A DNA stretch of 56,808 bases from an uncultured Methanosarcinales archaeon (GTDB taxonomy: Archaea > Nanobdellota > Nanobdellia > Woesearchaeales > CAZOXR01), in contig CAZMIO010000007.1 of assembly GCA_964566535.1 (NCBI GenBank), positions 1 to 56,808 of the forward strand. The letters are read 5' to 3'. Made by a program: the position numbers and the translations under genes. The notes beneath the pieces were generated by a model. The model was not told where the DNA came from. It ran no database searches and saw only the letters and a program-made list of their open reading frames with translations. This document shows, piece after piece, positions 33,228-35,734 of this stretch. How positions within the stretch are numbered: the stretch's first letter is position 1; the number at the start of each line of letters is the position of its first letter.

Positions 33228-34634
33228 TTAATCTATTTTTTTTACCCTAGGCCCATCATCTGAATCTTCGATGATATAGCCTTTTTCTTTTATTTTATCT
33301 CTTAGTTCGTCTGCTGTTTTGAAGTCTTTGTTTTTTCTTGCTGATTCCCTTTTATCTAAGAGGTCTTGGATAGATGAAGAGGTTTTTTCTTCTTTTTTGA
33401 AGTTCATCACCCCTAGAACTGAGTCTAGTTCTTTTAGGAGTTTTATTATAGAATCTGCGTTTTTCTTGCTAATTTTTCTTGTGTCTATTAATTTGTTGAT
33501 GTCTTTTGTGAAATTGAAGATTACTGCTAAGGCTTCTGATATACTGAGGTCGTCATCCATCTTTCTTTCAAACTTTGTTTTAGTTTGGTCAATTAATCTT
33601 GTGACTGCTGGATTGTCTATTGTTCCTTTTACATTTTTTAGGCTGAATATGAAATTGTTTAACCGTTCGATTGAGTTATGTGCTGATTTTAGTCCTTCGA
33701 ATGTGAAGTTTAATTGCTGTCGGTAGTTTGTTGCTAATAGTAGGTATCTAACCGATAATGGGTCAAAGTCTTTTTTTATGACGTCTCTTAATGTGTAGAA
33801 GTTTCCTAATGATTTTGACATCTTTTTTCCGTCAACAATTAGATGTTCGCAGTGAAGCCAATAGTTTACAAACTTTTTTTCGGTGTATGCTTCTGATTGA
33901 GTAATCTCGTTTTCATGGTGAGGGAATATTAGGTCAACTCCACCAGTGTGGATGTCAAATGTAGGTCCTAGGCTGTTCATCGACATTATTGTACATTCAA
34001 TATGCCAGCCAGGTCTTACTTTTCCCCAGTCCGAGTCGTAGGAGATATTCCTATTTATTTCGTCTTCTGTTGATTTTTTTAATAATGCGAAATCTCCGGG
34101 ATGGTCTTTTTCGTATTCGTCTGAATCTACTCTTGCCCCTGCTTTTTGCTGTGAGAGGTCAACTTTTGATAGTTTCCCGTAGTCTTTGAATTTATTTATT
34201 GCAAAGTAAACTGAACCGTTTTTTTCATAAGCATAGCCTTTGTCAACTAATGCTTTTGTAACCTTTATCATCCCATCAACGTGATCAGTTGCTTTTGGGA
34301 ACTTTGTTGCTTCTTTTATGTTTAGAGTAGTTAGGTCTTTGAAGAAAGCATCAGTAAATTTTTCGGTGAATTCTTTTAGGGAGAGGTTTGCTTCTTTTGA
34401 GTCCCTTATTGTCTTATCATCAATGTCTGTTATGTTCATGATATGTTTTACTTTGAATCCTTTGAATTCTAGGTATTTTTTTAGAATGTCTACGAATATG
34501 TAAGAGCGGAAGTTTCCGATGTGGGCGTAGTCATATACAGTTGGACCGCAGGAGTATAATGAAACCTGATTCTTCTTTAGTGGTTTGAAGGAATCTTTTC
34601 TTCTCGTTAGTGTGTTGTAAAATTTAAGTGCCAT
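33228..34634 (-). CDS. cysS: Cysteine--tRNA ligase
   Basis: CGPTVYD, HIGN, GWHIEC, FPHHENE and KMSKS motifs. Confidence 0.98.
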   Translation of the reverse strand: MALKFYNTLTRRKDSFKPLKKNQVSLYSCGPTVYDYAHIGNFRSYIFVDILKKYLEFKGFKVKHIMNITDIDDKTIRDSKEANLSLKEFTEKFTDAFFKDLTTLNIKEATKFPKATDHVDGMIKVTKALVDKGYAYEKNGSVYFAINKFKDYGKLSKVDLSQQKAGARVDSDEYEKDHPGDFALLKKSTEDEINRNISYDSDWGKVRPGWHIECTIMSMNSLGPTFDIHTGGVDLIFPHHENEITQSEAYTEKKFVNYWLHCEHLIVDGKKMSKSLGNFYTLRDVIKKDFDPLSVRYLLLATNYRQQLNFTFEGLKSAHNSIERLNNFIFSLKNVKGTIDNPAVTRLIDQTKTKFERKMDDDLSISEALAVIFNFTKDINKLIDTRKISKKNADSIIKLLKELDSVLGVMNFKKEEKTSSSIQDLLDKRESARKNKDFKTADELRDKIKEKGYIIEDSDDGPRVKKID

Positions 34635-34690
34635 TTTAGTATGTTATTTCTATTATAGTTTAAAATAGTTTTTGTTTTTTAATAAGTAAG

Positions 34691-34765
34691 AGGGAGGATT
34701 GGGATTTGAACCCAAAAATAAACGCTCTGCAGGCGCTCCCCTTAACCAGATTTGGGCATCCTCCC
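34691..34765 (-). tRNA. tRNA-Cys(GCA)
   Basis: GGGAGGA/TCCTCCC acceptor stem, U73 discriminator, anticodon arm AGCGC-CTGCAGA-GCGTT, T arm TTGGG-TTCAAAT-CCCAA. Confidence 0.95.
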
Positions 34766-34790
34766 GTAAAGGTGAAACTATGAAAAAGAA

Positions 34791-34823
34791 TTAACAGCAA
34801 CAAGATTTGAATGTTTGTTTCAT
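34791..34823 (-). CDS. Candidate poly-cysteine leader peptide MKQTFKSCCC
   Basis: ATG AAA CAA ACA TTC AAA TCT TGT TGC TGT TAA, 23 nt after TATA TTTAAATA (34847-34854) and 25 nt before tRNA-Cys. Confidence 0.65.
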   Translation of the reverse strand: MKQTFKSCCC

Positions 34824-34939
34824 AAGGGATAATGAATTGATACAGGTATTTAAAGTTTACTGATAATGAGGTTAATAATTTAAAACAAAAGCTTTTAATA
34901 TGTTTTAAGGTTACAAATTCTTTCAGGAGGCTGGTAATA

Positions 34940-35734
34940 ATGCAAGGAATATATGAATTATTGGGGAAAATTAAGGAGACAAAACCGTTAGTGCATCACA
35001 TTACAAATTGGGTAACTATTTATGACTGTGCGAATATTGTTCGAGCTGTTGGAGCACTGCCTGTTATGGCTCATGCTAAGGAAGAGGTTGAGGAGATGGC
35101 AGGAATTGCTTCTGCACTTGTTCTGAATATTGGAACTTTGACAACAGAGCTTGTGGATAATATGATCTTAGCTGGAAAGAAGGCTAATGAGAAAGGAATT
35201 CCGGTTGTGTTAGATGCTGTTGGTGTTGGAGCTACTAATTTTCGGAATGATAAATCTGCAGAGATTCTTGAGAAGGTTAAGGTTGATGTGATTAAAGGGA
35301 ACTCTTCTGAGATTGCTAAATTAGCTGGAGAGAATGTTGAGACTAAAGGAGTTGAGGCTGGACGTGTTGAAGCTAATTTGATTGAAGTAGCTAAGAAATT
35401 GGCTAACGAGAAGGATGCAACTGTTGTGATAACTGGCAAAGAAGATATTGTGGCTAACAAAGAATCTGTTTATACAGTTAAGAATGGGCATGATATGATG
35501 GGAAACATTGTAGGAACTGGTTGTATGGTGGCTTCCGTTATTGGTGCTTTTGCTGCTGTTGAACCAGATTATGCAAAAGCTGCTGCTGCTGCGCTTGCTA
35601 GTTTTGGCATTGCAGGAGAGCTTGCTGCTAGAAGATCATCAGGACCTGGAAGTTACAAAGAGTGCTTCTATGATGAGATTTTTAATCTAGATGAACTGTC
35701 CTTGAATGATATGCAAAAGGTTGAGAAAAAATAA
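34940..35734 (+). CDS. thiM: Hydroxyethylthiazole kinase
   Basis: [22 protein letters not shown] and GTGC motifs. Confidence 0.96.

Follow-up and report, generated by a model that had tools for sequence, protein, structure and literature searches.

A micro-open reading frame (micro-ORF) encoding the peptide MKQTFKSCCC lies in front of a tRNA-Cys gene in the genome of an uncultured, small marine archaeon placed in the order Woesearchaeales. The locus is on contig C7 (CAZMIO010000007.1) of the assembly GCA_964566535.1 (1.45 Mb, 37 contigs, 91% complete, about 36% G+C). In what follows, the window means this whole stretch of DNA, which is 56,808 nucleotides (nt) long. It is probable that the micro-ORF is translated from a leaderless mRNA, that it senses charged Cys-tRNA(Cys), and that it raises downstream expression upon ribosome stalling. 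The idea that transcription termination is the effector is more tentative. I infer translation, the transcription start, the direction of control, and the effector step from comparisons of related loci, which are described below.

The elements of the locus follow one another on the minus strand. The predicted promoter of the leader transcript is a TATA box, TTTAAATA, at 34854-34847 with GTAAAC in front of it. The micro-ORF with its stop codon occupies 34823-34791 (ATG AAA CAA ACA TTC AAA TCT TGT TGC TGT TAA). The putative sensor consists of three consecutive Cys codons, TGT TGC TGT (34802-34794), which abut the TAA stop codon. Behind the stop codon is a box, TTCTTTTTCATAGTTTC (34790-34774), which together with the spacer reads TTCTTTTTCATAGTTTCACCTTTAC (34790-34766) and contains a T5 run and a TCATAG core. 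The tRNA-Cys(GCA) gene starts directly after the spacer (34765-34690; called by aragorn and scored at 55.5 bits by the Rfam tRNA model). The cysS gene for cysteine--tRNA ligase is located 55 nt downstream of the tRNA gene (34634-33228; PF01406, 6.9e-111; TIGR00435, 500 bits with a cut-off of 340). The promoter, the micro-ORF, and the box are all housed in the 174-nt gap between tRNA-Cys and the divergent thiM gene, which starts at 34940. All of the letters and coordinates that the initial annotation of this locus had quoted are present in the window. The stretch is present in 20 DNA data sets from 15 studies and in no listed RNA data set, and four DNA runs compared across 34560-34960 gave identical contigs with zero variants.

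The tRNA-Cys(GCA) gene is the sole tRNA-Cys gene found in the 91%-complete assembly. Another candidate, called "tRNA-Cys(aca)" by aragorn on contig C2, was rejected as an intron artefact, as it has a long variable arm and its anticodon call depends on the intron. Between 34300 and 35300, Rfam detected the tRNA only and no other known RNA family at E <= 1. In particular, no T-box riboswitch was matched at this threshold, the leader being unstructured, and no thiamine pyrophosphate (TPP) riboswitch was found for thiM in the same interval.

Where does the transcript start? A promoter weight matrix was trained on 18 tRNA promoters of the same genome, where TTTATAWA or TTTAAAWA is the usual box of tRNA promoters. 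The distance from the TATA end to the mature tRNA 5′ end is 22-27 nt for 18 of the 27 other tRNAs called by aragorn. The top matrix site on either strand of 34640-34945 is the TATA box at 34854-34847 on the minus strand, which scores 10.7 bits; sites of at least 10 bits occur at about 1 in 10,000 genome positions. The spacing between this TATA box and the ATG of the micro-ORF is 23 nt. Since this value is within the range of the TATA-tRNA distances, the transcript is predicted to start at or adjacent to the ATG. Neither GGAGG nor another Shine-Dalgarno (SD) sequence is present ahead of this ATG. The weight matrix found no minus-strand site of 4.4 bits or more between the TATA box and tRNA-Cys, in agreement with the earlier remark that no other TATA is evident between the ORF and the tRNA. 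Because the sole strong promoter lies 23 nt before the micro-ORF ATG and not before the tRNA, this arrangement predicts that a leaderless micro-ORF mRNA and tRNA-Cys are on one transcript. An RNase P RNA is encoded (113.6 bits), and thus the 58-nt 5′ leader of the pre-tRNA-Cys would be removable. At least four T residues are found within 15 nt 3′ of the tRNA in 18 of the 27 other tRNAs of the genome. The T-runs in the 3′ flank of tRNA-Cys never exceed two residues, which makes read-through from tRNA-Cys into cysS plausible. It should be noted that cysS need not depend on such read-through. A second, weaker TATA (34666-34659, minus strand; 7.0 bits), located 24 nt before the cysS ATG, is predicted to be a leaderless promoter of its own.

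Is the micro-ORF common in this order of archaea? A tRNA-Cys covariance model was run on 151 genomes of the same order, which represent more than 130 families and include three unpublished genomes. The best hit was taken from 93 genomes, while the other 58 had weaker or unlisted best hits or were unpublished. A tRNA-Cys was called by aragorn in 91 of the 93 loci, and the 90 having at least 100 nt of upstream sequence serve as the denominator. The tallies over the 151 genomes (for tRNA-Cys and cysK), the wider phylum search, and the cysS search include up to three unpublished genomes each, none of which underlies a locus-level statement. An ORF was counted when it starts with ATG, has 20 codons or fewer, ends in at least two Cys codons with at most one further codon, and lies within 200 nt upstream of the tRNA. 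These detection rules were fixed after the first cases had been seen; the run-based frame test and the cysK controls described below are independent of them.

A Cys-run ORF was found upstream of 11 of the 90 tRNA-Cys genes (one locus per genome) in 11 different families. The predicted peptides are MKQTFKSCCC in the window (G000), MKTSSPCCCW (G049), MMVNCICCC (G038), MTGCCW (G111), MITLCCC (G105), MLKAICCC (G050), MTNKTSCCC (G103), MMVNCICC (G119), MINQICCCC (G003), MTKTNYLGCCCC (G072), and MALYYCCCCC (G064). The same ORF pattern occurs 23 more times on both strands of the remaining 610 kb or so of the 93 loci. A TATA 21-25 nt before the ATG accompanies all 11 tRNA-linked ORFs, as compared with one of the 23 background ORFs. 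That sole background ORF, MSKMLSAVREYCFCCRCCC of G049, heads a hexapeptide-transferase (cysE-like) ORF. Beyond the 93 loci, at least two extra genomes (G039 and G023) have such an ORF followed by a tRNA-Cys-like 5′ end, and thus 11 of 90 is not an upper bound for the order. On these counts, the recurrence of the micro-ORF is not due to chance. The initial annotation had expected a conserved Cys-run ORF in relatives, with synonymous variation. Such an ORF does recur: at least 11 families have it before tRNA-Cys, most cysK operons of the order carry it as well, and variation between TGT and TGC is seen in the Cys runs.

The tRNA-Cys genes behind a poly-Cys ORF mostly begin with GG (GGGAGG, GGGAGC, or GGAGGG), while the directly promoted ones begin with GCG or GCA; this difference could reflect lineage or function. 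In G049 (L034, around 1237-1500), two leaderless poly-Cys ORFs lie back to back on opposite strands, each with its own TATA. MKTSSPCCCW is directed towards tRNA-Cys-cysS, and MSKMLSAVREYCFCCRCCC towards the cysE-like gene.

Is the Cys run really read as codons? Without assuming an ORF, the 240 nt upstream of tRNA-Cys were searched for all stretches of at least three TGY triplets (n = 9). All nine runs have an in-frame stop codon no more than one codon after the run, an in-frame ATG with no stop codon in between, and a TATA located 19-27 nt ahead of the ATG. The remainder of these loci contains 64 such runs, of which 13 have the near stop codon, 12 have the in-frame ATG, and only one has all three features. 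This one turned out to be another module, located between tRNA-Cys and cysK in G135. Outside the Cys run the peptides are unalignable and their lengths differ, and within it TGT and TGC alternate. Since the frame is kept while the peptide, its length, and the choice of Cys codon vary, the comparison argues for translation of the Cys run rather than for a plain nucleotide motif.

The genes downstream point to cysteine. In all 11 ORF-bearing loci, cysS (PF01406) is located downstream of the tRNA on the same strand. It follows the tRNA directly in five loci (G000, G049, G038, G111, and G064), comes after a hexapeptide-transferase (cysE-like) gene in two (G105 and G050), and comes after a PALP (cysK-like) gene in four (G103, G119, G003, and G072). 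The G103 enzyme is CysK by NCBIfam (396 bits, cut-off 351). The G050 enzyme is a serine O-acetyltransferase, with 212 bits for NF041874 (cut-off 150) and 207 bits for TIGR01172, just below the cut-off of 210.65. Of the 17 loci among the 90 in which tRNA-Cys leads to cysS, 11 have the ORF, as compared with none of the 73 unlinked loci; 70 of the 80 ORF-negative loci had at least 1 kb of downstream sequence for inspection. Viewed from cysS, a module lies within 1.5 kb in 10 of the 26 closest cysS loci having at least 300 nt upstream. In nine of these ten, the module connects to cysS via tRNA-Cys, cysK, or cysE, and the tenth is G045.

The module was also found in a second context. A cysK homologue (E <= 1e-40) is present in 40 of the 151 genomes of the order, one of the 40 being unpublished. 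For 27 published cysK loci with at least 1.3 kb of upstream sequence, a module was defined as a TATA-spaced ATG ORF with at least two consecutive Cys codons near its end. Such a module is located upstream of cysK in 21 of the 27 loci, in 20 of them within 500 nt. The same detector gave 0/27 on the reverse strand, 0/27 downstream, and 0/540 in block shuffles. When sampling was widened to the phylum, another 15 published cysK loci gave 7 positives, among them a weak case (…NCCF) from one of three genomes of other orders of the class. Many of the module-bearing cysK operons lack any tRNA, and thus the module moves between contexts. In public contigs, at least 120 loci match the pattern, mostly chance bacterial ones. 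Among the matches listed, 21 are in frame, and nine of these 21 have cys genes or tRNA-Cys downstream. Again among the matches listed, the module is found in public metagenome-assembled genomes (MAGs) labelled Candidatus Woesearchaeota, Nanoarchaeota, or Nanobdellati, to which the label "DPANN-like" given by the initial annotation fits. Two Methanosarcinales labels and one Pseudobdellovibrionaceae label among the listed nine are not trusted. In the genomes compared, these results show that the module is tied exclusively to cysteine genes.

The cysK route to cysteine appears to be closed to most members of the order. In 3 of the 151 genomes there is an apparent CysK-CysRS fusion, in which PALP and cysteinyl-tRNA synthetase share one stop-free frame of 776-804 codons (G119:C3:134287-136566 in L062/L253, G090:C2:19541-21850, and G041:C89:1326-3497).

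The archaeon of the window itself has both contexts. The whole assembly was scanned for TATA-spaced ORFs of 2-30 codons (n = 507). Only two of the 507 have a run of three or more Cys codons, and both head cysteine genes. The second one, MREEIKKETSIFSLSRCCCMCC, is located on the minus strand of contig C3 with its ATG at C3:141890 and a TATA 22 nt upstream. It is followed in order by TACACAATTCATTGTTTAAAA, a 19-codon ORF, a DUF2061 gene, cysK (TIGR01139, 467 bits), and a serine acetyltransferase gene. Thus, the two poly-Cys leaders of the genome together head its tRNA-Cys/cysS locus and its cysteine-synthesis operon. Nothing convincing was found among the 507 short ORFs for leaders with runs of other amino acids, for which no dedicated follow-up was made. 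In the second module (C3, around 140500-141960, minus strand; L107, 2410-4420), a box-like sequence, AATTCATTGTTT, lies past the stop codon.

The box behind the stop codon is a conserved part of the module. In a comparison of 36 distinct modules, two or three of which are possibly false, the consensus of the post-stop box is near TTCTTTCATTGTnnTAGTT, and TTCTTTTTCATAGTTTC is the version of the window. TCAT[TAC][GT] is found within 22 nt of the stop codon in 21 of the 36 modules, as compared with 17 of the 498 short ORFs of this genome that served as controls. TTCT and TCAT occur together in 17 of the 36 modules and in 5 of the 498 controls. The offset of the box from the stop codon varies by 0-2 nt, and the frame of the box is not kept. 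The box of the window is T-rich with its T5 run, resembling the native T-runs after tRNA genes.

Two other explanations of the box were discarded. It is not a general terminator motif, as TCATTG was found 7 times after 946 long ORFs where 9.4 were expected, and CATTGT once where 8.4 were expected. The TAG in the box is not a stop codon for frameshifted ribosomes, as its frame differs between G103 and G050 (by eye). A three-codon mini-frame, TTG-NNN-TAG (or TAA), is seen inside the box of G103, G072, G050, G039, G115, G065, G105, G056, and G252. Examples are TTG TTT TAG, TTG TGC TAG, and TTG TGT TAA; the middle codon varies, while the stop codon is in frame.

Does the box pair with the start of the micro-ORF? 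It had been pointed out that TATGAAA in the start region (34824-34818) is complementary to TTTCATA (34785-34779). The complementarity is real. The duplex is missing from the predicted minimum-energy fold, and the support for its functional importance is weak and non-covarying. A second pairing register, UGAAAC/GUUUCA, has a predicted energy of -6.0 kcal/mol (p 0.03). When a duplex of the box with the ORF's 5′ part was evaluated for each of the 36 modules, it was only slightly better than in shuffles: p<0.05 was reached by three modules on shuffling the 5′ part and by five on shuffling the box. The corresponding Fisher p values are 0.02 and 0.007, with the rows being kin. By eye, the TCAT of the box is invariant with the base after the ATG. 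From these models, start/box pairing is possible and unproven. A helix joining the box to the 3′ flank of tRNA-Cys was rejected as a general feature: it is strong only in G072 (p 0.0), G103 (p 0.08), and G039 (by eye), and ten others gave p >=0.19. In these three genomes (L090 of G072, L045 of G103, and L236 of G039), the box is complementary over 9-22 bp to the sequence just past tRNA-Cys, and the long helix would bracket the tRNA. Its downstream arm contains the ATGAAAG start of another small ORF.

How might the module work? Transcription would start at the ATG or beside it, some 23 nt past the TATA box, and the first product of the leaderless mRNA would be MKQTFKSCCC. When Cys-tRNA(Cys) is plentiful, the ribosome would clear the three Cys codons, terminate, and depart. 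The box behind the stop codon would then be exposed, and few transcripts would get past the tRNA gene, most of them ending or being destroyed ahead of it or inside it. Under scarcity of Cys-tRNA(Cys), the ribosome would stall at the Cys codons abutting the stop codon and cover the start of the box. In that state, more RNA polymerase or RNA would reach tRNA-Cys and then cysS through the weak T-run after the tRNA. Together with the leader of the DUF2061-cysK-cysE operon on the other contig, this would constitute a small ribosome-driven cysteine regulon. A tRNA cannot be controlled via its translation, and therefore control at the tRNA-linked loci must act on transcription or RNA fate. Furthermore, since there is a single tRNA-Cys gene, stable feedback would be obtained only if the stall raises read-through; the reverse polarity would lock the cell out of tRNA-Cys.

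As for the effector, my guess is box-dependent premature termination or cleavage without a hairpin, perhaps by FttA/aCPSF1. The KH domain of this factor is encoded in the genome (PF17214, KH_TffA, 70.2 bits) in a 631-codon frame on contig C1, with one TAA inside the frame. According to the available text of one study, aCPSF1 cooperates with terminator U-tracts (PMC8716108). In the available text of another, the authors of an FttA structure hypothesise steric exclusion between FttA and the coupled ribosome, which is proposed there and not shown (PMC11616081). I regard as evenly balanced the broader proposition that archaea possess a hairpin-free, ribosome-mediated attenuation in which a leaderless poly-Cys micro-ORF and a sequence-specific post-stop box allow the ribosome to gate transcription or RNA survival into the sole tRNA-Cys gene. 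The same module would then coordinate cysK, cysE, and cysS as a "ribulon" across Woesearchaeota-like DPANN, with the box as a new effector element at which FttA/aCPSF1 might load or cleave.

Several points weigh against the proposed sensing and attenuation. The 11 tRNA-linked leaders fold weakly (z from -2.2 to +2.1, with 9 of the 11 above -1), and the two structured leaders among them are those with long spacers. The leader of the window has a predicted energy of -3.0 kcal/mol (z 0.39) and folds no better than its shuffles. No terminator/antiterminator pair was predicted across the 11 leaders, and a hairpin attenuator was therefore rejected; the predicted folds in the cysK leaders are also weak. 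G105, G119, and G038 have no run of four T residues, and the conserved core is TCATTG rather than oligo-U. The interpretation in the initial annotation thus divides into two parts: a poly-Cys sensor for tRNA-Cys/cysS is strongly supported by the comparison, whereas termination at the U tract is not, as several relatives lack a T run of at least four. Some leaders are very short (43 nt in G105), and the geometry of the bacterial expressome leaves a ribosome little scope to act while the polymerase is still at the box. Given this geometry and the short leaders, a factor acting on the RNA behind the polymerase must be assumed. Judging by ribosome footprint sizes, the box would be hidden by the stalled ribosome only over its first few bases. 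Six tRNA-Cys-to-cysS loci have no upstream module. The leader may be bypassed in part, for cysS in the window by its own TATA and for tRNA-Cys in G038 by a second TATA (by eye) that precedes the tRNA by 23 nt. Finally, the relatives are kin, and the counts overstate the number of independent events.

The same sensor may have another effector. A stalled ribosome could shield the transcript from 5′-to-3′ decay or from cleavage at the box, and in cysK operons it could open a downstream ribosome-binding site (RBS), as happens in mycobacteria. I consider this unlikely on balance, while it is the alternative with most in its favour. In the cysK-linked modules, GGAGG and a start codon lie only 30-110 nt behind the stop codon, and weak pairing of this GGAGG with the pyrimidine-rich box is conceivable (by eye). 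The box has a specific sequence and is not oligo-U. Translational attenuation is, in the available text, the published mechanism for the mycobacterial short ORF Ms5788A (10.1101/834739). On the other side, where a tRNA lies between the leader and the mRNA, its excision would uncouple the fate of the leader from that of the mRNA. The tRNA has no ribosome-binding site, and the predicted structures are weak. It is also conceivable that a small molecule (free cysteine, sulfide, or a metal) is recognised by the nascent poly-Cys peptide inside the ribosome, which the peptide then arrests in the manner of TnaC, instead of tRNA charging being sensed. The Cys run always adjoins the stop codon, and two peptides end in CCW or CCCW, which is reminiscent of stop-proximal arrest peptides. 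This is nevertheless very improbable. Some peptides have only 6-7 residues, the Cys codons are the sole conserved part, and the linkage to tRNA-Cys and cysS fits tRNA sensing more simply.

The remaining possibilities do without a sensing ribosome. The UGU/UGC repeat and the box might be an untranslated site, in RNA or DNA, that is recognised by a protein responding to cysteine or sulfur. This would account for the conservation of the box at the nucleotide level, its variable offset of 0-2 nt from the stop codon, and the prevalence of TGT in the Cys run. It would leave unexplained why nine of nine runs are in frame with a TATA-spaced ATG and a stop codon within one codon (one of 64 in the background) and why the frame is kept while the length and the peptide of the ORF vary, and I give it marginally less credence than peptide arrest. 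A functional Cys-rich micropeptide, acting as a metal or redox ligand and co-produced with the cysteine genes, would suit a conserved, promoter-proximal ORF. It is still more doubtful, since nothing is conserved beyond the Cys run, the lengths range from 6 to 29 residues, there are no partner genes, and the ORF is always in cis with tRNA-Cys, cysK, cysE, or cysS. Least credible of all is that the ORF arose by chance within a 5′ leader of pre-tRNA-Cys that is unusually long. The AT-richness of the region and the ORF length of just 33 nt speak for it, but the ORF recurs in many families and in a second, tRNA-free context, and the controls gave zero. Sensing of charged Cys-tRNA(Cys) by a ribosome translating the micro-ORF is therefore preferred.

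The surroundings of the locus in the window are rich in sulfur genes. The neighbours include thiM, thiE, and thiC as well as genes for ThiI, IscS-like, IscU-like, and NadA proteins, so the setting described in the initial annotation (thi, thiI, iscSU, and nadA) is borne out by gene annotation. The divergent thiM gene (34940-35734, plus strand) is given here for context only. It has its own TATA-like site at 34893-34900 (7.7 bits), 39 nt before the ATG, plus GGAGG before the ATG (34893-34942, plus strand); that is, a leadered gene diverges from a leaderless micro-ORF. Some features of other tRNA genes in the genome were also seen. The TATA spacing of 22-27 nt implies near-leaderless tRNA transcripts despite the presence of RNase P RNA. 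AATTCT, about 10-17 nt before the tRNA, is common to several tRNA promoters. Four tRNA genes have no TATA at the usual place: C3:39901 (tRNA-Arg gcg), C4:98184 (tRNA-Thr cgt), C1:56641 (tRNA-Pro), and C1:112426 (tRNA-Ser cga). These four adjoin the apparent end of an upstream coding region and may be co-transcribed with mRNAs.

The use of translation-coupled attenuation by archaea has long been an open question. Archaeal transcription relies on a eukaryote-like machinery and is nevertheless coupled to translation. The module provides a compact natural test case of about 60-100 nt, comprising a promoter, a sensor of 7-13 codons, and a conserved box. If the proposal is true, a tRNA gene lies behind codons readable only by its own product, and the tRNA regulates its own synthesis via its own decoding. 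Cysteine supply would be a regulated bottleneck in host-dependent DPANN archaea, given that a cysK homologue is present in no more than 40 of the 151 genomes sampled. No published case of an archaeal poly-Cys leader attenuator was found in a literature search, most subscription journals being outside its coverage. Most likely, the module is a ribosome-based sensor of cysteine supply, a kind that has been published for bacteria and apparently not for archaea.

Classical attenuators of the trpL and hisL type carry a short leader ORF with consecutive cognate codons and are coupled to translation, and they need alternative hairpins and a hairpin terminator. The cognate codon run is shared by the archaeal module, whereas alternative hairpins are not predicted. 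In the tna operon, a ribosome held at the end of the TnaC leader ORF masks a site of the factor Rho right after the stop codon, and TnaC senses free tryptophan via the nascent peptide. The proposed model for the archaeal module resembles it in that a held ribosome would mask the stop-adjacent box, with FttA/aCPSF1 as the candidate factor. A conserved stop-adjacent box and an encoded termination factor are the tna-like features that were found here.

The closest parallels are bacterial. The polycysteine leaderless short ORFs (sORFs) of mycobacteria, of the Ms5788A type, form the "Cys ribulon" (Canestrari et al., 10.1101/834739). As far as the available text of that study describes them, the two systems share a leaderless (here predicted) short ORF with at least two consecutive Cys codons as the first cistron of cysteine operons. 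They also share the presence of several loci per genome (here two, the window locus and that on contig C3) and the proposed sensing, namely ribosome pausing at low charged tRNA-Cys. The module differs in its archaeal domain, its TATA/BRE (B recognition element) promoter, and the lack of sequence homology, from which an independent origin is presumed. Moreover, a tRNA gene lies directly downstream, no RBS-sequestering duplex is predicted, and the conserved post-stop box has no counterpart described in the available text on the mycobacterial sORFs. The second parallel is uORFC-8-2, an upstream ORF (uORF) before cysS in Rhodobacterales (Brewer et al. 2021, PMC8632094). In the available text, it likewise has tandem Cys codons before cysS and is read as ribosome-mediated attenuation that raises Cys-tRNA synthesis. 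It is bacterial and has two stems and an intrinsic terminator hairpin, with its Cys codons at positions 14-15, whereas the archaeal leaders have no stems, a C-terminal Cys run, and tRNA-Cys and cysK/cysE as the usual first genes. Because the hairpin feature was looked for and not found, the archaeal module is not a member of the hairpin-based attenuator family; it works like the mycobacterial polycysteine sORFs and the Rhodobacterales cysS uORF.

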